Positions 3,421 through 59,103 are shown, numbered from the stretch's first letter. The stretch: 64,000 nucleotides of DNA from Clostridia bacterium (GCA_045601365.1 JAZRZN010000002.1:20376-84375); one strand, 5' to 3'. Made by a program: numbers and translations. The notes: generated by a model not told the origin, from the sequence alone.

Positions 3421-6400
3421 ATGTTTCTTAAAAGGCTTGAGCTGTTCGGCTTCAAATCGTTTGCCGAACGGCTGGATATAACGTTTTCCGGCGGTATAAC
3501 CGCGATAGTCGGTCCTAACGGGAGCGGTAAAAGCAATGTCAGCGACGCGGTGCGCTGGGTACTCGGAGAACAGAGCGCAAAACAGCTTCGCGGCGCGAAT
3601 ATGGCAGATGTCATCTTCAAGGGTACGGAGAACAGAAAACCGCTCTCGTACTGTGAGGTATCGCTTGTATTTGATAATTCGGATAAGGGGCTTGACATCG
3701 AGTATTCCGAAGTCGTTATTACCCGCCGACTTTACAGGAACGGCGACAGCGAATACTATATCAATCGCAACGGTGTGCGCCTTAAGGATATCGTATCACT
3801 GTTTCAGGATACGGGTATCGGCAAAGAGGGGTATTCCATCGTCGGACAGGGCAAAATAGAAAATATACTTTCCGGCAAGCAGGATGAGCGCCGTGCGGTA
3901 TTTGAGGAAGCCGCCGGCATAGTCAAATACAAGACGCGAAAAATCGAAGCAGAGCGCAAGCTTGAGCATACAAGCGAAAATCTCGTGCGCATAAATGATA
4001 TAATCGAAACGCTTCAGGACCGTATAGAACCGCTTTCGGCGCAGGCGGAGACCGCAAAGGAATATATCGGTTTGCGTGAACAGCTCCGTAATATCGAGGT
4101 CAACTTCTACCTTGTACAGAATGAACTGTCGGTACAGCGCAGAAATGAATACGGGCTTCAGCTTGAAGGTATAGATCAGGAACGTGAGGAAAAAACACAG
4201 CACGTTGCCGCGATAGATGCCGACAGCGCTTCGGTGACGGAACAGCTCGGTAAAAAAGACGAAGAGCTTGCGGCGGTGCGCGCAAAGCTTTTGGAGCTTA
4301 CTGCCGGCAGTGAGAAGATGCAGGGCGAAGGCAAGGTCTTTGCGGAGCGCATCCAGAACATCAACGAACAGCTTGAGCGTGTGAAAAATGAGCTTGAAAG
4401 CAACGCCGCACGCAAAAAGTCGATGGAGGATGCGATAAACGGCGATTCGGATGCAGAAAGCGAAAAACAAAAAACGATAGATGCAAAGACTGCGGAAGCC
4501 GAAAAGCTTGAAAAAGAGCTTGCGGAGCGCGACGGTTGGCTTGAAGGTGAGAATGATGAGCTTGAAAAGCTGAAGGCTGAAATGCTTGCGAACATGAACA
4601 AGCTTTCCGATGTCAAGTCGGCAATAAGCCGTTATGAGGCGATGCGCGCAGGCATTATTCAGCGCAAGGAGAAAATAAATATCGCCGCGGAACAGCTTCG
4701 CCTGCAACGCACGGGAATAGAAGAAGCTCTTGAGGAGCAAAAAGGCGATACGGCAGAGTATGACCGCGAGAAAAACAAAATATCACAGGACAAAGACTCC
4801 TTGAAAACAAAGTGGCAGGAGCTTTATATAAAAAAAGACAGTGCATCGGAAATACTTTCGCAAAAAAAGGCGGAGCTTAATTCGGCACAGTCAAGATTGC
4901 GCGTGCTTGAGGACCTGAAACGCGATTTCGAGGGCTTTAACTATTCGGTAAAAAAACTGCTTACGAGAAGTGAGCAGGACGCAGACATGAAAAAACGCAT
5001 ATGCGGTGTTGTGGCACAGCTTATTGCCGTTCCGGAAAAGTACGAAACGGCAATAGAAGCCGCTCTCGGCAGTGCAATGCAGAATATCGTCACGCCCACG
5101 GAGGAGGATGCAAAGGAGCTTATTGAGTTTTTGCGCCGCAACGATGCCGGACGTGCTACGTTCCTGCCGATATCGGCGGTGCGCGGCAGAGGCATCGACG
5201 AGCGCGAGCGTGCGTCTATCCGCACCGAAGGCTGCTTCGGCGTTGCGTCGGAGCTGATATCATACGACCAAAAATATGACGGCGTTATCAAAAGTCTGCT
5301 CGGCAGAACGGTGATAACAGATGATCTTACAGTCGGTATCGCGGTTGCGCGCAAAACGGGACATTCGCTTAAAATAGTTACGCTCAAGGGCGACGTTATG
5401 AATGCAGGCGGCTCAATGAGCGGCGGCAGTATGCGCCAGAAGACATCGAGCATACTCGGCAGAGAACGCGAAATAGAGGAGCTTAAAAAGCAGATAGCGG
5501 AAGTTCAGAAGGGCATTACCGGGTTTTCCGATGAAATGGCACATTTCGACGAAAACTGCAAAAAGCTTGAATCGGATATCGCTGAATGCGACAGAAAGCT
5601 CCATGAGCTTGATATCAAGTTCGCGCACGATTTCGAAAAGCTTAATTCGCTCAACAATGATCTTAAGCAGAATAAGGATGCCGATAGCGAGCTTAAACTT
5701 GAAAATGAACAGCTTGACGATACGCTTAAAGAAATCGATACTGAGCTTGCAAATATAAATCAAACGCAAGGAACCGTCGAAAGCTCCAATACCGACGCAC
5801 AGACAAGCATAAATGCGCGTCAGGCGGAATATAACAGAAAACAGCTTGAGCGCGAAAAGCTTTACCAAAAGCTTACCGACGCGCGAATAGAGCTGAACGG
5901 CTTGGATAAAGAGCTTGAGGCGATGAAAAGCAACGCTCAGCGCATGGGCGAGCTGATAAAAAATCTTGAGGTTTCATCTCAAAAGCTTGAAAACGACAGA
6001 AAAATATATTTTGCTCAGCTCGATGCCGCGAAGCTTGAAATGGAAGAGAGCGCAACCAAAAACACAGAGCTTAAAAACGAGCTTGAACAGTATTCGCAAA
6101 AGGAAAAGGATGCCGAGGCGGAACGCGAAAAGCTTGATTCCGCGCTTAAGGAAAATGACTCCAAACGCAGACGCTTTGAACAGGAGATATACGACGCGGG
6201 CGAGCGCAGGCACAAGATAGAGCTTGCGCTTACAAAGGTCGATAACGATCTTTCGTATCTTGAAAACCGCATCTGGGAAGAATATGAGCTTACTCAGGCT
6301 ACCGCCGAGGAGTTCCGCGATCCCGAATTTAAGCTGACGGGCGCGCAGACGGAAATAAACAAGCTCAAAAAGTCAATAGCGGCACTCGGCAATGTCAATG

Positions 6401-6978
6401 TCAACGCGATAGAGGAGTATGTCGAAACAAAGGAAAAATTCGATACGCTTTCAAGTCAGCGAGATGACCTGCAAAAAGCCGAAGACGATCTTCACAATAT
6501 AATCGACGAGCTTACCAAAAAAATGGATAAGCAGTTCACCGAGCAGTTTGAGCTTATAAACAAGAATTTTACCAAAATATTCAGCGAGCTGTTCGGCGGA
6601 GGCAGAGCCGAGCTTAAAATGGAGCAGGCGGAAAATTCGCTTGAGGCGGATATAGAAATAGTAGCACAGCCGCCGGGAAAAAGCTTACAGCTCCTGTCAC
6701 TGCTTTCGGGCGGCGAACGTGCGCTTACCGCAATAGCGATACTATTTGCCATGATGAAGCTGAAGCCGACACCGTTCTGCATCCTTGATGAGATCGAGGC
6801 GGCACTTGATGAATCAAACGTAGGCAATGTCGCTTCGTATCTGCGCAAGTTCTCGGAGCAGACGCAGTTTATAGTCATCACGCACCGCAAGCCGACAATG
6901 GAGGAAGCGGACAGTCTTTACGGCGTGGCGATGGAGGAAAAAGGTGTTTCCAAAATAGTTTCGGTAAAGCTTACTTAA
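3421..6978 (+). CDS. smc: chromosome segregation protein SMC
   Basis: 1185 aa. Walker A GPNGSGKSN, long E/K/L-rich coiled coils, central hinge, LSGGERALTA signature, Walker B ILDEIEAALD. Confidence 0.97.
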   Translation: MFLKRLELFGFKSFAERLDITFSGGITAIVGPNGSGKSNVSDAVRWVLGEQSAKQLRGANMADVIFKGTENRKPLSYCEVSLVFDNSDKGLDIEYSEVVITRRLYRNGDSEYYINRNGVRLKDIVSLFQDTGIGKEGYSIVGQGKIENILSGKQDERRAVFEEAAGIVKYKTRKIEAERKLEHTSENLVRINDIIETLQDRIEPLSAQAETAKEYIGLREQLRNIEVNFYLVQNELSVQRRNEYGLQLEGIDQEREEKTQHVAAIDADSASVTEQLGKKDEELAAVRAKLLELTAGSEKMQGEGKVFAERIQNINEQLERVKNELESNAARKKSMEDAINGDSDAESEKQKTIDAKTAEAEKLEKELAERDGWLEGENDELEKLKAEMLANMNKLSDVKSAISRYEAMRAGIIQRKEKINIAAEQLRLQRTGIEEALEEQKGDTAEYDREKNKISQDKDSLKTKWQELYIKKDSASEILSQKKAELNSAQSRLRVLEDLKRDFEGFNYSVKKLLTRSEQDADMKKRICGVVAQLIAVPEKYETAIEAALGSAMQNIVTPTEEDAKELIEFLRRNDAGRATFLPISAVRGRGIDERERASIRTEGCFGVASELISYDQKYDGVIKSLLGRTVITDDLTVGIAVARKTGHSLKIVTLKGDVMNAGGSMSGGSMRQKTSSILGREREIEELKKQIAEVQKGITGFSDEMAHFDENCKKLESDIAECDRKLHELDIKFAHDFEKLNSLNNDLKQNKDADSELKLENEQLDDTLKEIDTELANINQTQGTVESSNTDAQTSINARQAEYNRKQLEREKLYQKLTDARIELNGLDKELEAMKSNAQRMGELIKNLEVSSQKLENDRKIYFAQLDAAKLEMEESATKNTELKNELEQYSQKEKDAEAEREKLDSALKENDSKRRRFEQEIYDAGERRHKIELALTKVDNDLSYLENRIWEEYELTQATAEEFRDPEFKLTGAQTEINKLKKSIAALGNVNVNAIEEYVETKEKFDTLSSQRDDLQKAEDDLHNIIDELTKKMDKQFTEQFELINKNFTKIFSELFGGGRAELKMEQAENSLEADIEIVAQPPGKSLQLLSLLSGGERALTAIAILFAMMKLKPTPFCILDEIEAALDESNVGNVASYLRKFSEQTQFIVITHRKPTMEEADSLYGVAMEEKGVSKIVSVKLT

Positions 6979-6990
6979 TAAGGAGTTCTT

Positions 6991-7932
6991 ATGGGTTTAT
7001 TCGGAAAAAAAGAAAACGGTGAGGGCAAGGAAAGCTGGCTCAAAAAGCTTGCCGGCGGACTTGCCAAAACAAAAGAGAATATATCAAGCAAGCTTGATGA
7101 CCTTGTAAAATATTACCGCGAGATAGACGATGAGTTCTTTGAAGAGCTTGAAATGATACTGATTTCGGCGGATATCGGCGTAAATGCTGCAAACAGCATT
7201 CTTGATTCGCTCAAGGCGCGTGTCAAGGAGGAAAAGACGGGCGACAGCTCACTTATACATTCGTATCTGCGCGACAGCATCCGCGATATACTCACTTCGG
7301 CGGAAAAGGATGAGGAAGAATCCTACCCGATGCTTATGCTTGTGACGGGCGTGAACGGTGTCGGCAAAACAACGGCGATAGGAAAGCTGGCAAATTATTA
7401 TATCAAATCGGGTAAAACGGTGATGGTCGCGGCGGCTGATACGTTCCGCGCGGCGGCGGTGCAACAGCTCGACGAGTGGGCAAAGCGGAGCGGCGCACAG
7501 ATGATCCGCGGCAGTGACGGCGCTGACCCGTCATCGGTCGTGTACGATGCCATTGCGAGCGCAAAGTCAAAAAAAACAGATGTCCTCATTTGCGATACCG
7601 CGGGAAGACTTCATAACAAGAAAAATCTTATGGATGAGCTTTCCAAAATAGGCAGGGTGATAGCACGCGAATACCCCGAAGCGAAAAGACAGAATATGCT
7701 TGTGCTTGACGCTACTACGGGACAGAATGCGCTGACACAGGCACAGGGCTTTTCGGAGGCTGTCGGCATAGACGGGATAATCCTCAATAAGCTTGACGGC
7801 ACTGCAAAGGGCGGCGTCGCCGTTGCGATAGCCAAGGAAATGAATATCCCGATAATGTATATCGGGGTGGGTGAGGGCATCGACGATCTTCGACCGTTCG
7901 ATGCCGATGAATTTGCAAAAAATATAATCTGA
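6991..7932 (+). CDS. ftsY: signal recognition particle receptor FtsY
   Basis: 313 aa. SRP-GTPase NG domain motifs GVNGVGKTT, DTAGR, NKLDG. Confidence 0.95.
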   Translation: MGLFGKKENGEGKESWLKKLAGGLAKTKENISSKLDDLVKYYREIDDEFFEELEMILISADIGVNAANSILDSLKARVKEEKTGDSSLIHSYLRDSIRDILTSAEKDEEESYPMLMLVTGVNGVGKTTAIGKLANYYIKSGKTVMVAAADTFRAAAVQQLDEWAKRSGAQMIRGSDGADPSSVVYDAIASAKSKKTDVLICDTAGRLHNKKNLMDELSKIGRVIAREYPEAKRQNMLVLDATTGQNALTQAQGFSEAVGIDGIILNKLDGTAKGGVAVAIAKEMNIPIMYIGVGEGIDDLRPFDADEFAKNII

Positions 7933-7934
7933 AT

Positions 7935-8201
7935 TTATTTGTATTTTGCGATGAACTGCTTTATGTCGTGCAACAGCAGTTCATCGCGTTTTTGTATTTT
8001 TGGCGAGCTGATATCAAGCAGGTACGACGGGTCAAGCTCAAGGATTTGGCATATCTGCCTGAATTGCTCAAGGCTCGGCTCTTGCAAGCCGCGTTCTATC
8101 TTTGAATAGTTGGATTGGTTCATCGGTATCTTTGCCGCCATTTCGCACTGAGTAATCCCCGCACTTTCGCGGGCAAATTTTATCTTTTCACCAAAATCCA
8201 A
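7935..8201 (-). CDS. XRE-family helix-turn-helix transcriptional regulator
   Basis: HTH_3 pattern (IKFARESAGITQCEMAAKIPMNQSNYSKIERG). The ORF track starts at 8252. However, TGtTATAAT followed by GGAGAGG lies inside that extension, so the TTG at 8201 (LDFGEKIKF) is the likely start. Confidence 0.8.
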   Translation of the reverse strand: MDFGEKIKFARESAGITQCEMAAKIPMNQSNYSKIERGLQEPSLEQFRQICQILELDPSYLLDISSPKIQKRDELLLHDIKQFIAKYK

Positions 8202-8245
8202 TATACTCACCTCTCCTTCGATTATAACATTTTTAACTAAAAGTA

Positions 8246-8274
8246 TTGACAAATAGTTTATAATTATATATAAT
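8246..8274 (+). promoter_or_regulatory. consensus sigma-A promoter for the LRR/cohesin/dockerin gene
   Basis: TTGACA (8246-8251), 17 nt, TATAAT (8269-8274). It overlaps the divergent XRE promoter region. Confidence 0.6.
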
Positions 8275-8328
8275 AGTTAAAAATACACTAAACGTGTGTT
8301 TTGAAAAATAATTTTTTGGAGGAAAAAG

Positions 8329-9894
8329 ATGAAAAAGAACTTGCTTAGGCAGGCAATGTCCCTGTTGCTTGCGGCGGTGCTGGTAGCATCGTGTCTGTTT
8401 GCCATAAATGTGGCGGCAGAAGGGGAAAACATTGTACAGGGAACGACGGGAAGCATCAAATGGGTGTTGGATTTAGACAGATATGTGCTTACCTTAAGTG
8501 GCACAGGTGAAACAGACGGATACTATAATGCAATTAAGGGTTCGTTTTATGACAGACCTTGGCAAAACTATTTAGCGCACATTGAAAAAATTGTTGTAGA
8601 AGAAGGAGTTACAAGAATAGGCAGCGCTTGCTTTTGCGATTGCAACCAATTAGTATCGTTAAGTTTGCCGAGTTCACTTAAGAGCATCGGACGCGCAGCG
8701 TTTAGCAGTGATATACGTTTGGGAAGTATTGATTTGCCCAAAGGACTCACATCAATAGAACCATATGCATTTGAAAATTGCCAACGTTTGAGCGGAAAAC
8801 TAATTATTCCGGGAGTTCTTAATATTGGAGATACTGCTTTTTCAAATTGTACAGCCTTAACAGATGTAGTCATTTCACGCGGAACAATTTCGGTGGGCAG
8901 TGCCGCATTTGACGGTTGTACAAGTCTTAAAACCGTAACCTTGTCGCAAGGGGTTGTCAGCGTTGGCGAAAAAGCTTTCGGTAGTTGTTCCGCGCTTACC
9001 GATATCTATTACGGCGGAACTGAGGACGAGTGGAGCGATATTTCGATAAATGCTACGGGCAACCAATATTTCAATACCGCTACAAAGCATTTCAATGTTC
9101 ATGACCACAGATACATAACCGAGCGTGTTGAGCCGGATTGTACGCATACGGGTGCGGAGGTCAAAACCTGCGCCGAGTGCGGCGAAAAGATAACAAATAT
9201 CATCCCCGCGACAGGACATTTTTACGGCGAGGAGATCGAGGGTGTAAAGTCATGTATCGTCTGCGGACATGTTCAGGTGCATCCTGTTGAAATAACCGTC
9301 TGCGATGCGCGTGCCAATAAGGGACAGGTCAAAGTGCCGATAACACTTGATTATAACCCGGGGATATCGACCTTGCTTCTTAAGATAGGCTACGACAGCG
9401 AGGTATTCACGCTTTCGGAGGTCATCGACGGCGAAATACTCGGTGAAGCCGTTCACAGCGATAAGCTCACTGCCGACCCGTATACGCTTTCGTGGGAAAA
9501 CGACCTTTCGACCACGGATATTCCCGCTACGGGAGTTATCGCAACACTTGTGTTTGACATCAAAGAAGAAGCCGTGATGGGCAATTACAATATTACCGTA
9601 ACAAAGGGACAGGCGGCGAACAGTGCGCTTGAACTGTTCGAAACTTCATGCACCGACGGTACTGTGCGCTTCGATGCCAAGCTGATAGGCGATATCAATG
9701 ACGACGGCGAGGTCACACCTGCCGACAGAATGATGCTTTCGCGCTTCATCGCCGATTGGGATGGTTACGATACGACAACATGCAATATCCATGCCGCCGA
9801 TGTCAACGGTGACGGCGAGGTCGATGTCATTGACCGTATGATACTCGCGCGTTTCGTTGCCGATTGGGAAGATTATAAGGTATATTTTGAATAA
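8329..9894 (+). CDS. secreted BspA-type leucine-rich-repeat protein with cohesin-like domain and C-terminal type-I dockerin
   Basis: Signal peptide (MKKNLLRQAMSLLLAAVLVASCLFAINVAA). About 23-aa LRR units (IGxxAFxxCxxLxxVxLPxxL). A Cys-rich linker. Cohesin-like block (VKVPITLDYNPGISTLLLKIGYD...). Duplicated Ca-binding dockerin segments GDINDDGEVTPADRMML / ADVNGDGEVDVIDRMIL. Confidence 0.75.
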   Translation: MKKNLLRQAMSLLLAAVLVASCLFAINVAAEGENIVQGTTGSIKWVLDLDRYVLTLSGTGETDGYYNAIKGSFYDRPWQNYLAHIEKIVVEEGVTRIGSACFCDCNQLVSLSLPSSLKSIGRAAFSSDIRLGSIDLPKGLTSIEPYAFENCQRLSGKLIIPGVLNIGDTAFSNCTALTDVVISRGTISVGSAAFDGCTSLKTVTLSQGVVSVGEKAFGSCSALTDIYYGGTEDEWSDISINATGNQYFNTATKHFNVHDHRYITERVEPDCTHTGAEVKTCAECGEKITNIIPATGHFYGEEIEGVKSCIVCGHVQVHPVEITVCDARANKGQVKVPITLDYNPGISTLLLKIGYDSEVFTLSEVIDGEILGEAVHSDKLTADPYTLSWENDLSTTDIPATGVIATLVFDIKEEAVMGNYNITVTKGQAANSALELFETSCTDGTVRFDAKLIGDINDDGEVTPADRMMLSRFIADWDGYDTTTCNIHAADVNGDGEVDVIDRMILARFVADWEDYKVYFE

Positions 9895-9909
9895 ACGCTT
9901 AAAAAGTGC

Positions 9910-9938
9910 TTGACAAAAAAACGCATATGTAATATTAT
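9910..9938 (+). promoter_or_regulatory. sigma-A-like promoter upstream of the RAYT gene
   Basis: TTGACA (9910-9915), 17 nt, TATTAT (9933-9938). It lies inside the ORF-track N-terminal extension, which argues that the extension is not coding. Confidence 0.5.
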
Positions 9939-9940
9939 AA

Positions 9941-9970
9941 CGGCTGTAAAACATTTTTGCTTTACAGCCG
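9941..9970. repeat. perfect 10-bp inverted repeat with 10-nt loop
   Basis: CGGCTGTAAA acatttttgc TTTACAGCCG. It could be the terminator of the LRR gene or a 5' hairpin of the RAYT transcript. Confidence 0.6.
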
Positions 9971-10002
9971 TTGTTGTGCTTTGCGGGGCAGTAAATGATA
10001 TT

Positions 10003-10500
10003 TTGAAACATACATTGGATATAAGAAAACCGACACGGTTGAAATGCTTTGATTATTCGGCAAACGGATATTACTTTATTACGGTATGCACGGAAAATAA
10101 ACAGAAAATAATGTGTAATATCGTAGGGTGCGGCGTCCTCGACGCACCGAAAACAGAATTATCCGATATCGGTAAGACCGTAAAAAAGCAACTTGATTTT
10201 ATGGACGATTTTTATAACGATATTAAAATCGACAAGTATGTAATAATGCCGAATCACTTGCATTTGATATTGAAAATAAGGCGTGACAGCGGTGCGTCGG
10301 GGACACCGCATCCTACGAATAATGTGTTATCGTGTTTTGTCGGATCATTCAAACGTTTTACAAACAGAGCCGTCGGCAAAAATATTTGGCAAAAATCGTT
10401 TTACGACCATATAATCCGTGATGAAAACGATTATTTGAGAATATGTGAATATATCGACGCTAATCCTGCAAAATGGGCTGATGATGAATATTACACATAA
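10003..10500 (+). CDS. REP-associated tyrosine transposase-like protein (RAYT; Y1 HUH, IS200-like fold)
   Basis: HUH motif in IMPNHLHLIL. Catalytic Tyr context WQKSFYDHIIRDENDY. Typical N-terminus RKPTRLKCFDYSANGYYFITVCT. Start uncertain (TTG 10003 or 10015); the track start 9910 is unlikely. Confidence 0.75.
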   Translation: MKHTLDIRKPTRLKCFDYSANGYYFITVCTENKQKIMCNIVGCGVLDAPKTELSDIGKTVKKQLDFMDDFYNDIKIDKYVIMPNHLHLILKIRRDSGASGTPHPTNNVLSCFVGSFKRFTNRAVGKNIWQKSFYDHIIRDENDYLRICEYIDANPAKWADDEYYT

Positions 10501-10520
10501 AAACCTACAAAGCTTTACGG

Positions 10521-10674
10521 TGCGTCGGGGACGCCGCACCCTACGGGCAATAGTGTTGCGTAGCGTGCATCGCGGACGCCGCACCCTACGGGCAATAGTG
10601 TTGTGTAGCATGCATCGGGGACGCCGCACCCTACGGGCAATAGTGCTGTGTAGCATGCATCGTGGACGCCGCAC
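10521..10674. repeat. 45-bp tandem repeat, 3.4 copies, each containing a REP-like palindrome
   Basis: Units at 10521-10565, 10566-10610, 10611-10655 and partial 10656-10674. Consensus TGCRTCGNGGACGCCGCACCCTACGGGCAATAGTGYTGYGTAGCR, with only 1-4 differences between units. Confidence 0.9.
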
Positions 10675-10768
10675 AATTCTGATAGTTTCCAACCATTGCA
10701 TGAATAGGATGAAGTACCGAGAAAACTGCTTTCAAACGAGGTGACCACCTACGGACAGCGCAACCGAA

Positions 10769-11065
10769 ATGCTGATATTGCTTGACACATATGAAAAGCT
10801 TTTGACCGATACGCAGGCAAAAATACTGCGCATGCGCTTTGATGAGGACATGTCACTTTCGGAAATAGGTGAGCTTTGTTCGGTTTCGCGGCAAGCTGCG
10901 CATGATGCGATAGTCAAGGGTGAACAGAAGCTCAGGTTTTATGAAGAAAATCTTCATCTTGCAAAAAAGGAAAACGACATCCGCAACTTGATTTCCTTAA
11001 TGAAAAAAGAAAATGCGGATATAAAATATATCGACCTGCTTGAAAAACTAACGGAGGAACAGTAA
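10769..11065 (+). CDS. ylxM: YlxM/p13-like putative DNA-binding protein (UPF0122), first gene of the ffh operon
   Basis: 98 aa. Pattern LLDTYEKLLTDTQAKILRMRFDEDMSLSEIGELCSVSRQAAHDAI. It overlaps the ffh start (ATGA-type junction). Confidence 0.85.
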   Translation: MLILLDTYEKLLTDTQAKILRMRFDEDMSLSEIGELCSVSRQAAHDAIVKGEQKLRFYEENLHLAKKENDIRNLISLMKKENADIKYIDLLEKLTEEQ

Positions 11066-12414
11066 TGGCTTTTGAGGGACTTACCGAAAAACTTCAGAGA
11101 GTATTCAAAGGACTTAAGAGCCACGGCAAGCTTACCGAAAACGACGTAAAGGAGGCTATGCGCGAGGTGCGCATGGCTTTGCTTGAAGCCGATGTAAACT
11201 TTGCCGTAGCGCGTGATTTTGTCAAAAAAGTCACCGAAAAGGCCGTCGGCGAAAATGTACTCAACAGTCTTACACCCGGTCAGCAGGTAATCAAAATAGT
11301 AAACGACGAGCTTACCGAGCTTATGGGCGCGACGAATGCAAAGCTCACCGTTTCGTCACAGCTCCCGTCGATATATATGCTTTGCGGTCTGCAGGGCGCA
11401 GGTAAAACGACCATGTGCGCGAAGCTCGGCGGACATCTTAAAAAGCAGGGCAAAAAACCGTTGCTCGTTGCATGCGATATATACCGTCCCGCCGCCATAG
11501 ATCAGCTTAAGGTCGTCGGCGCACAGCTTGATATCGCAGTGTTCGACCGCGGCACGCAAAGCCCCATAAAAACAGCGCAGGAAGCGATAGCTTATGCAAA
11601 AAGCTATCTTTACGATACGGTGATACTTGATACGGCAGGTCGTCTGCATATAGACGAAGAGCTGATGAATGAGCTTGTCGATATCAAAAAGCAGGTGCGT
11701 CCCACCGAAATTTTGCTTACCGTTGACGCAATGACAGGTCAGGATGCCGTGAACGTCGCTCAGAGCTTTAACGAAAAGCTCGGTATCGACGGCGTTATTT
11801 TGACAAAGCTTGACGGCGATGCCCGAGGCGGTGCCGCAATGAGTGTCAAGGCGGTCACCGGCAAGCCGATAAAGTTCGCAGGTATAGGCGAAAAGCTTGA
11901 GGATATCGAGGTTTTTCACCCCGACAGAATGGCATCGAGAATACTCGGCATGGGCGACGTGCTTTCGCTTATCGAAAAAGCGCAGGAAAACTTCGACGAA
12001 GAGGAAAGCTCCAAGCTCGTTGACAGGATCAAGCAAAACAAATTCGATTTGCAGGATTTCTTGGATCAGTTCAAGCAGATGCGTAAAATGGGTTCGATGA
12101 AGGATATACTGAAATCGCTTCCGCCGATCCCCGGTCTTGATACAAGCAAGCTTTCTCAGCAGGAAATCGACGAAAAACGTATAGACCGCATAGAAGCGAT
12201 AATACTTTCCATGACGAAAAAGGAACGCAAGAATCCAGATATACTGAACGCATCGCGCAGACGGCGTATCGCCGCCGGAAGCGGCACGACCGTTCAGGAG
12301 GTCAACCAGATGATAAAGCAGTTCGAGCAGACAAAAACAATGATGAAACGCTTCGGTCTGTTTTCAAAAAAAGGCGGAGGAATGCCCAGAGGCGGCTTCC
12401 CCAAATTCAGATAA
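11065..12414 (+). CDS. ffh: signal recognition particle protein Ffh
   Basis: 449 aa. GLQGAGKTT, DTAGR, TKLDGD and a Met-rich M domain. Confidence 0.97.
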   Translation: MAFEGLTEKLQRVFKGLKSHGKLTENDVKEAMREVRMALLEADVNFAVARDFVKKVTEKAVGENVLNSLTPGQQVIKIVNDELTELMGATNAKLTVSSQLPSIYMLCGLQGAGKTTMCAKLGGHLKKQGKKPLLVACDIYRPAAIDQLKVVGAQLDIAVFDRGTQSPIKTAQEAIAYAKSYLYDTVILDTAGRLHIDEELMNELVDIKKQVRPTEILLTVDAMTGQDAVNVAQSFNEKLGIDGVILTKLDGDARGGAAMSVKAVTGKPIKFAGIGEKLEDIEVFHPDRMASRILGMGDVLSLIEKAQENFDEEESSKLVDRIKQNKFDLQDFLDQFKQMRKMGSMKDILKSLPPIPGLDTSKLSQQEIDEKRIDRIEAIILSMTKKERKNPDILNASRRRRIAAGSGTTVQEVNQMIKQFEQTKTMMKRFGLFSKKGGGMPRGGFPKFR

Positions 12415-58739: not shown

Positions 58740-59002
58740 GTAGGGTGCGGCGTCCCCGACGCACCGCTGTCGCACGGTGAGTTGCAGGAAATCGCAACAT
58801 GTTTTATATCTTTGTGTCATTGCGAGGAGCGTTAGCTCCGTGGCAATCCGGATACGAACAGAAGTAACTTTATGTAAAACATGGATTGCCACGCATCCTG
58901 CGGATGCTCGCAATGACACAATGGGTATTTTTCGGAATAATGGCGTTGTTTCCTGCCCGTGCTTTGTGCGCGAACGGTGCGACAGCGGATGCCGCACCCT
59001 AC
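58740..59002. repeat. 263-bp nested-palindrome element bounded by inverted REP-like (GTAG-palindrome) motifs
   Basis: Outer inverted repeat GTAGGGTGCGGC...(58740-58765) / ...GCCGCACCCTAC (58987-59002). CCGCTGTCGCAC / GTGCGACAGCGG. TGTGTCATTGCGAG (58813-58826) / CTCGCAATGACACA (58907-58920). GTGGCAATCC (58840-58849) / GGATTGCCAC (58883-58892). Confidence 0.85.
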
Positions 59003-59103
59003 GGGACAGTCAAGACAGTGCGCCGTAAAAACGTATGAGCATATGCTGTTTTCTCAACGTTATTTTTCACGGAAATAAAAAAGAACCAAAGCGTAAAAAG
59101 TGC

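Follow-up and report, generated by a model that had tools for sequence, protein, structure and literature searches.

The REPtron is said to be a tnpA_REP gene flanked by inverted repetitive extragenic palindromic (REP) sequences or bacterial interspersed mosaic elements (BIME), as described in Corneloup 2021 (PMC8266576) and reportedly by Ton-Hoang in 2012, Messing in 2012 and Nunvar in 2010, while the REPIN, attributed to Bertels and Rainey in 2011, reportedly consists of an inverted doublet of REPs folding into one long hairpin and moving as a unit. Subclass 2.4 of the tnpA_REP genes is said to be equivalent to Group 4 of the REP-associated tyrosine transposases (RAYT) of Bertels et al. 2017. 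In-frame REP insertions are reported in subclass 2.4 tnpA_REP genes in the covered parts of Quentin et al. 2018 (BMC Genomics 19:475, PMC6006769), and those of Di Nocera et al. 2013 (PMC3733652) catalogue unrelated genes that contain REPs or Rickettsia palindromic elements. Here, a stretch of 64,000 nucleotides (nt) from a Clostridia bacterium (GCA_045601365.1 JAZRZN010000002.1:20376-84375), referred to below as the window, was analysed with regard to a RAYT gene, a domesticated transposase gene coding for a TnpA_REP-like Y1 HUH enzyme (10003-10500, + strand), in which two REP copies are translated in frame. Comparison with related genes strongly suggests that both motifs are a clade-wide nucleic-acid element under selection, and neither a peptide motif nor a recent accident.

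The first copy (site 1, 10123-10148, + strand) reads GTAGGGTGCGGCGTCCTCGACGCACC, has its GTAG foot and hairpin on the coding strand and encodes V41-P49. The second (site 2, 10291-10316, - strand) has its GTAG foot and hairpin on the template strand, reads GGTGCGTCGGGGACACCGCATCCTAC on the + strand and encodes G97-T105. Compared with the REP consensus of the window, GTAGGGTGCGGCGTCCCCGACGCACC, perfect copies of which stand at 10519-10544 and 58740-58765, site 1 differs at 1 and site 2 at 2 of 26 positions, so the description of both as near-copies of an extragenic REP in the initial annotation holds. Their arrangement is likewise read directly from the sequence as it had been proposed: the copies are inverted, in frame and 142 nt apart, and bracket the codons of the HUH motif (H85 L86 H87, 10255-10263, + strand). 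The canonical hairpin has a predicted energy of -10.5 kcal/mol at site 1 and -6.6 kcal/mol at site 2, the latter being weaker because of its two substitutions.

A 20-nt REP core, allowing up to 3 mismatches, had 6 occurrences in the window where shuffles gave an expectation of 0.01, and a 26-nt degenerate REP pattern gave 6 matches against 0.00 expected. These counts go beyond what the chance similarity of GC-rich codons to REP would yield, and dozens of species, whose REP sequences differ, share this arrangement; nothing was found in favour of chance, which is refuted as an explanation of the similarity and is left with a negligible probability. The flank said to be common to site 2 and the distant REPs is real as far as ACAGC is concerned, and the coordinates first given for it were off by 1-2 nt: gACAGC precedes site 2 at 10285-10290 and recurs at 58766-58771 (opposite strand) and at 58981-58986. 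Consequently, an identical peptide, DSGASGTPHPT, is encoded by 58771-58739.

To follow both sites through related genes, 45 of the 1,911 RAYT homologues obtained by protein search were aligned, and 80 loci, each with +/-10 kb of flank, were taken from the best tblastn matches at one genome per species. The genomes, mostly metagenome-assembled, belong mostly to Acutalibacteraceae, Oscillospiraceae and other Clostridia, plus Fonticella, and 71 RAYT genes were found in these loci. The aligned segments read V-G-x-G-x-x-D-x-P and G-x-S-x-T-P-x-P-T, amino-acid pairs suggesting reverse-complementary codons, and the alignment replaces the lineage-specific insertions envisaged at first by a feature of a whole Clostridia-centred clade. 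When the 55 codons before the HUH motif were searched against the 70 codons after it, the best inverted repeat in most of the 71 genes was 20-32 nt long, began with GTAGGG and flanked the HUH motif, with scores of 14-32 (codon-shuffle control: mean about 8, maximum 14) and a spacing of 123-197 nt. Under a strict definition of the hairpin (GTAG and at least 7 paired positions), both sites were occupied in 57/71 genes, one site in 13/71 and neither in 1/71, and the opposite orientation was found in 0 of the 71. In the RAYT genes, GTAG hairpins had a density of about 3.6 per kb, vs 0.13 per kb over the 1.17 Mb of flanking sequence.

The sequences of the stems vary by species (GGGACC/GGTCCC, GGGGACG/CGTCCCC, GGGGAGGG/CCCTCCCC, GGGGGCGATG/CATCGCCCC) and their pairing is maintained. 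Over 71 distinct arms, 90.5 % of cells are paired vs 70.6 % after shuffling, a value reached by 0 of 500 shuffles; double-changed cells number 128 against 30 expected, the covariation score is 0.53 vs 0.15 (slid controls at most 0.15), and all four Watson-Crick pair types occur at three stem positions. Over the same arms GTAGG is invariant and GTAGGG nearly invariant. The GTAG of site 1 stands in codon phase 0 in 55/56 related genes, which accounts for the invariant Val-Gly, while site 2 is found in all three codon phases (38/14/4 across 56 genes), so that the conserved thing is the DNA element and not the peptide. The encoded peptides are diverse between species (VGTGVLDGP, VGAIHELP, VGEGLCALP, VGGDDHIAP), and the codons of the orthologues spell REP hairpins, the reverse of what would be expected if the same peptides had been kept with unrelated codons. 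In addition, 51 inter-species gene pairs have at least 25/26 arm-1 nucleotides in common, with a mean third-codon-position identity of 0.48 (minimum 0.31) over their most conserved protein blocks.

Conservation of the protein itself, with peptide loops that are structural or contact DNA and a REP resemblance that is secondary, would agree with the 45-sequence alignment in so far as V41 and G42 are invariant and G44, D47, P49 and P104 nearly so. However, the invariant residues are exactly those set by GTAGGG and the closing CC(G), and the other residues vary freely alongside the stem sequence. Three translation phases at site 2, and the lack of both segments from 4ER8, the E. coli REP-associated tyrosine transposase structure (PDB), in the alignment with it, also speak against this explanation, which is regarded as very improbable. 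Both peptides are accordingly taken as by-products of the DNA element.

Folding of 10100-10330 predicted a 28-bp stem between both copies (z = -6.5 as DNA and -7.8 as RNA). Thus, the stem of about 26 bp enclosing the HUH segment that the initial annotation had put forward is indeed predicted by folding, but the comparison between genes does not support it as the functional structure. Among the stem positions that differ between arms in 56 genes, 25 are compensated doubles, 9 are singles still pairing and 3 are pair-breaking; the double changes keep the hairpin of each arm and would therefore break the pairing from arm to arm. Arms differ at a rate of 0.09 in stems and of 0.245 at loop or unpaired positions. 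In one heterotypic gene (L051), site 1 reads GGGGCGATTCACGAATCGCCC and site 2 GGGGACGGCGTCCTCGACGTCCC, and two others (L029, L011) likewise hold different REP types at sites 1 and 2; a further gene (L081) has the stems GGGGCC/GGCCCC at site 1 and GGGGAC/GTCCCC at site 2. A conserved internal G.A mismatch is oriented alike with respect to the GTAG foot in sites 1 and 2 and consequently lies on opposite strands in them. As judged from these comparisons, the selected structure is most probably each local hairpin, not the 28-bp long-range stem.

The compensated arm differences, the heterotypic genes and the G.A configuration argue against the long duplex and, more weakly, against a role in the mRNA only. 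In such a role, a duplex of 26-28 bp or two RNA hairpins would limit translation or trigger RNase cleavage, with low expression of the transposase as the outcome. The tnpA gene of IS200 is repressed by an mRNA hairpin, a precedent that counts for this possibility together with the predicted long-range stem and the near identity of the arms in most genes. Down-regulation of RAYT expression by REP hairpins is also suggested in the covered part of PMC3733652. Against it, 25 of the 37 stem differences between arms are compensated within the arm with loss of arm-to-arm pairing, the sites of L051, L029 and L011 are heterotypic, and arms differ less in their stems than at loop or unpaired positions; moreover, the GTAG foot and G.A configuration of site 2 lie on the strand that is not the mRNA, and an RNA hairpin needs no conserved CUAC. 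The asymmetry of G.T vs A.C, by which an RNA role might be told from a DNA role, was weakly informative, few non-Watson-Crick pairs being present besides G.A. Overall, an mRNA-level role is held to be improbable.

Further evidence on the function of the hairpins comes from the protein. The top match of the RAYT product in the PDB by profile search is 4ER8 (E 2.6e-9), and Foldseek with an AlphaFold (AF2) model, built from 45 homologues and with a mean predicted local distance difference test (pLDDT) of 83, ranks the same structure first (E 2.5e-7, template modelling (TM) score 0.60), followed by the TnpA of ISDra2 and IS608. The helix alphaC of the model (residues 108-124, codons 10324-10374, + strand) aligns with the K82 stretch of 4ER8. 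The covered part of PMC8266576 assigns K82 to alpha3, a conserved helix that binds DNA and contacts the REP. When the genes were sorted into five classes by the REP class of site 1, the identity of 12 alphaC residues, none of them REP-encoded, was 0.57 within and 0.23 between classes. No class structure was seen in the HUH block, which is situated between site 1 and alphaC (0.67 within vs 0.68 between classes), or in the C-terminal catalytic block (0.58 vs 0.61). This coupling is the strongest evidence that the embedded hairpins would be the enzyme's own substrates; among the meanings suggested at the outset, self-recognition is the one best backed by comparative data.

Tandem RAYT paralogues, two or three in number, are present in few of the 80 loci: L007 (8879-9415 and 9986-10507), L048 (4083-4580, 6195-6665 and about 8750-9040) and L066 (9980-10477 and 10768-11265). 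The REP classes of the paralogues differ in L007 and L048, and helix alphaC differs to match. Recombination between RAYT paralogues could be the origin of the heterotypic genes.

Both REP-encoded segments have low confidence in the AF2 model. Site 1 forms the tip of a beta-hairpin after strand beta1, between model strands 38-41 and 50-53, and site 2 falls in the loop that links the HUH strand to helix alphaC (model loop 93-107, low pLDDT). Site 2 also varies in length. In L081 it consists of an in-frame array of 45-nt units (10280-10494) with 4.8 copies by Tandem Repeats Finder and five CCTAC feet; in this one Oscillospiraceae lineage, a 15-aa unit, GTSRTPSPTDAGAGP, is repeated at site 2, and near-identical proteins of 196, 211, 226 and 241 aa, in steps of 15 aa, are found among P0046, P0049, P0052, P0063 and P0064. 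Site 2 is thus a variable-number repeat within a transposase gene in the L081 lineage, and with this expansion and these length steps the sites behave like dynamic REP loci. The L081 array and the array beside the RAYT gene of the window have the same 45-nt period and unrelated linkers. In more distant homologues (30-38 % identity), encoded on plasmids of Chloroflexota and Bacteroidota, these loops are present and contain no REP, and tblastn of plasmids beyond Clostridia returned distant homologues only (Leptolinea, Fulvitalea, Spirosoma), all without the REP pair.

These features would suit neutral in-frame REP insertions, tolerated in permissive surface loops and kept uniform through gene conversion or the turnover of REPs: the model places both segments in loops of low confidence, 4ER8 has neither of them, the distant homologues are free of REPs, and the copy number at site 2 differs between strains. 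In addition, such insertions are called peripheral and probably without effect on activity in the covered text of PMC6006769, and the part of PMC3733652 within coverage places intragenic REPs in unrelated genes too. Neutral insertion is nevertheless considered unlikely. The same two positions and orientation are found in about 80 % of the 71 genes, with 0 cases of the opposite orientation, compensatory substitutions keep the hairpins, arms are near-unchanged in gene pairs of low third-position identity, most loci are without a nearby extragenic donor for conversion, and the REP class is coupled specifically to alphaC.

Outside the gene, GTAG-footed REPs are repeated in the 64-kb window as a 3.5-unit array beside the RAYT gene and as a pair at 58.7-59.0 kb. 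In the tandem array (10519-10680, - strand; Tandem Repeats Finder: period 45, 3.4 copies), a 45-nt unit is repeated about 3.5 times, always oriented like site 2. The array starts 18 nt 3' of the RAYT stop, each unit being a 26-nt REP with a 19-nt linker ending in GTAG, and its units read GTAG...CCTAC, resembling 'double-foot' REPs. The distant REP (58740-58765, + strand) is a perfect consensus copy whose 3' flank GCTGTC (58766-71) matches that of site 2, and from sequence reading and alignment it has an incomplete inverted partner at 58975-59003 (- strand), with which it makes a REPIN-like pair of about 260 bp (58740-59003). Nested inverted repeats, gtgtcattgcgag...ctcgcaatgacac and gtggcaatcc...ggattgccac, lie inside this pair, and both of its arms bear the extension GCTGTCGCAC, in part common to RAYT site 2.

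A similar extragenic copy was found within 10 kb at 17/55 loci only; the intragenic pair is therefore constant and the extragenic copies variable. Where extragenic REPs occur they are often accompanied by adjacent RAYT codons, as in L039 (IKDSGGDGTPPLQDVIRN, E = 1e-4), L016, L049, L064 and the 58.7-kb copy of the window. REP arrays are present around the RAYT gene of Fonticella tunisiensis DSM 24455 (L046) at 9680-9920 and 10540-11600. Upstream, four REPs follow each other with a period of about 68 nt; downstream, six tandem units of about 170 nt correspond to the RAYT gene minus the segment from site 1 to site 2, i.e. the HUH core, with unit alignment scores of 30-37 (null mean 13.5, maximum 21). 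'Double-foot' REPs (GTAG...CTAC) occur in this genome, and by their sequence the units look like collapsed RAYT relics centred on such a REP. Relics were sought at every locus with a chimera in which a REP joins the 5' and 3' flanks. Two other candidates were dismissed, the matches in L066 being its full RAYT paralogue and the 45-nt array of the window having an alignment score short of significance.

In the boldest reading, the RAYT gene of this clade would be a self-contained REPtron in which the two recognition hairpins bound the HUH-coding core as an excisable or collapsible cassette, with REP families, arrays and double-foot REPs born from the RAYT. Whether the enzyme catalysed it or the hairpins drove it, loss of this cassette would leave a single 'double-foot' REP flanked by gene remnants, and the intragenic pair would act as a heritable master copy keeping the specificity of alphaC matched to its substrate. 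This extension is put forward tentatively, and on balance it is somewhat unlikely.

A 10-nt direct repeat, AATAATGTGT, at 10107-10116 and 10318-10327, flanks the intragenic REP pair of the window, with the top score among 62 genes and above the 99th percentile of between-gene flank scores. As a target-site duplication it was rejected: over the 62 genes the own-flank mean was 5.3 vs 4.9 with flanks of different genes, and the repeat was not present in the others. It is treated as a local peculiarity of the window gene.

Taken together, an internalised REPtron is regarded as the moderately probable explanation: the RAYT gene would carry, within the codons of two surface loops, the recognition hairpins cognate to its enzyme, and selection at the DNA level would maintain them. 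By analogy with characterised enzymes, we infer that the enzyme would recognise and cleave both hairpins of its own gene, in single-stranded DNA, as its cognate sites, the inverted REPs of this REPtron sitting within the gene rather than around it. Whichever strand became single-stranded, during replication or transcription, one copy would fold in the recognisable orientation. The specificity of the enzyme would be tied to its resident substrate pair, and extragenic REPs, tandem arrays and 'double-foot' REPs might all have the intragenic pair as their source copies. The hairpins may also affect the expression or stability of their own gene.

Several points weigh against the embedded recognition hairpins. 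Their binding and cleavage are extrapolated from the TnpA_REP of E. coli, Stenotrophomonas and Marinomonas (PMC8266576). The shuffle statistics were computed over phylogenetically related sequences, and their significance therefore overstates independence; the 80 loci, moreover, are top tblastn matches, mostly from metagenome-assembled genomes. Collapsed relics were clear only in L046 among all loci searched, and the role of source copy is documented in few genomes, extragenic copies being found at 17/55 loci. Homogenisation of REPs by gene conversion or by template switching between inverted repeats could keep the hairpins without a function for the gene. Finally, the weakened hairpin of site 2 may perhaps reflect relaxed constraint in the window gene.

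Concerning the gene itself, an open frame spans 9910-10500 and includes both REP copies in its frame. The coding sequence would probably begin at the TTG at 10003, giving 165 aa, and not at 9910, the start annotated for a 196-aa product (P0001): a promoter-like site, TTGACA-17-TATTAT, with an 11/12 sigma-70-like match, lies at 9910-9938 and suggests the later start. The product scores 25.5 bits with Pfam Y1_Tnp, above the cut-off of 23, and 71 bits with NCBIfam REP_Tyr_transpos, below the cut-off of 80. In the alignment of 45 sequences, M82, P83, N84, H85 and H87 are invariant, as are Y150, I151 and N154. Y150 (10450-10452, + strand; model helix 141-152) is the candidate catalytic tyrosine, as judged by its place in the YIxxNP motif.

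Directly after the promoter-like site, an inverted repeat, ACGGCTGTAAA...TTTACAGCCGT (9941-9972), is accompanied by a T-rich tract and could be a RAYT leader hairpin or the terminator of the upstream gene. No credible known RNA family was found in 9500-11200, the best match (E = 0.033) being far under the gathering score. The upstream gene (8329-9894) encodes a secreted protein of 521 aa in which leucine-rich-repeat-like segments and two putative C-terminal dockerin-type repeats (GDINDDGEVTPADRMMLSRFIA / GDGEVDVIDRMILARFVA) were recognised by eye; a dockerin-like protein would fit a cellulosome-bearing Clostridia host. Among the distant homologues, the one on plasmid pFA2 of Fulvitalea axinellae (L084; 4914-5516, no intragenic REPs) is directly followed downstream by a type I-B CRISPR-Cas operon (cas6, cas7, cas5b, cas3; 5877-10489).

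The findings bear on two questions about bacterial repeats, namely how REPs originate and how a single-copy RAYT stays matched to its REP population in the long term. The clade described here would supply dozens of natural enzyme-substrate pairs, one gene each, for the specificity between alphaC and REP, and suggests a testable way in which RAYT genes could give rise to double-foot REPs and REP arrays. It is also a clear case in which selection on a DNA hairpin overrides codon choice and shapes protein loops, and a warning for annotation, peptides such as 'VGxGVLDxP' and 'GxSxTPxPT' being by-products of a translated DNA element.

The finding is an instance of a known phenomenon, the in-frame REPs reported in 2018, which is extended by its architecture and by the evidence for selection. 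The clade was set beside subclass 2.4 by published motifs and REP features. As in the covered parts of PMC6006769, the RAYT gene contains GTAG-footed REPs whose stems have G-C pairs at their base and which leave the frame intact; there they sit mainly in the variable loop (beta3-alphaC) that follows the HUH strand, where short DNA repeats vary the length. The published REPs of subclass 2.4, as far as covered, start with GTAGGG (GTAGGGAC or GTAGGGGCG), as they do here. The protein motifs of that subclass, given in the same parts as NHxH, WQ and YIxxNP, are similar to those found here: the clade consensus is MPNHIHL, WQ and YIDxNP, the window has NHLH and YIDANP, and the published forms NH[IFV]H, WQ and YIxNNP are close, not identical. 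In the literature searched, with PMC6006769 covered in part and its figure S10 outside that coverage, no description was found of a second, phase-locked site before the HUH motif, of a fixed inverted orientation around it, of base-pair covariation in RAYT-embedded REPs, of gene pairs with low third-position identity and near-identical arms, of heterotypic pairs or of a coupling between REP class and alphaC.

The REPIN is resembled in so far as two inverted REPs and a spacer are present and one long stem-loop is predicted in the window. Unlike in a REPIN, however, the spacer consists of coding sequence (123-197 nt), and two local hairpins are favoured over the doublet hairpin. A second copy of the HUH-coding spacer was found by tblastn neither in the window nor in the examined flanks, and conserved arm-to-arm pairing was not observed, the 25/37 compensations within the arm and the heterotypic pairs standing in its place. 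The elements of Di Nocera et al. 2013, within the part covered, are similar as palindromic repeats in frame in loops of otherwise conserved proteins; those occupy sporadic, lineage-specific sites, whereas the host here is the REP-processing enzyme and the sites are conserved across the clade.

With the REPtron, in the parts of PMC8266576 covered, this locus has in common a single-copy Y1 HUH gene physically tied to inverted cognate GTAG-footed hairpins, and a protein and REP type that co-evolved. In contrast to the REPtron, the inverted REPs are inside the open reading frame (ORF) and translated, the DNA between them is the HUH core and not the whole gene, and many loci are without a REP adjoining the gene. 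The IS200/IS605 elements also combine a Y1 HUH enzyme of related fold (ISDra2, IS608 TnpA) with hairpins whose 5' tetranucleotide serves as a guide. In those elements, however, the subterminal left-end and right-end (LE/RE) hairpins recognised by TnpA share a strand, lie external to tnpA and delimit a multicopy mobile unit, whereas the hairpins of the RAYT gene are within the ORF, one on each strand.

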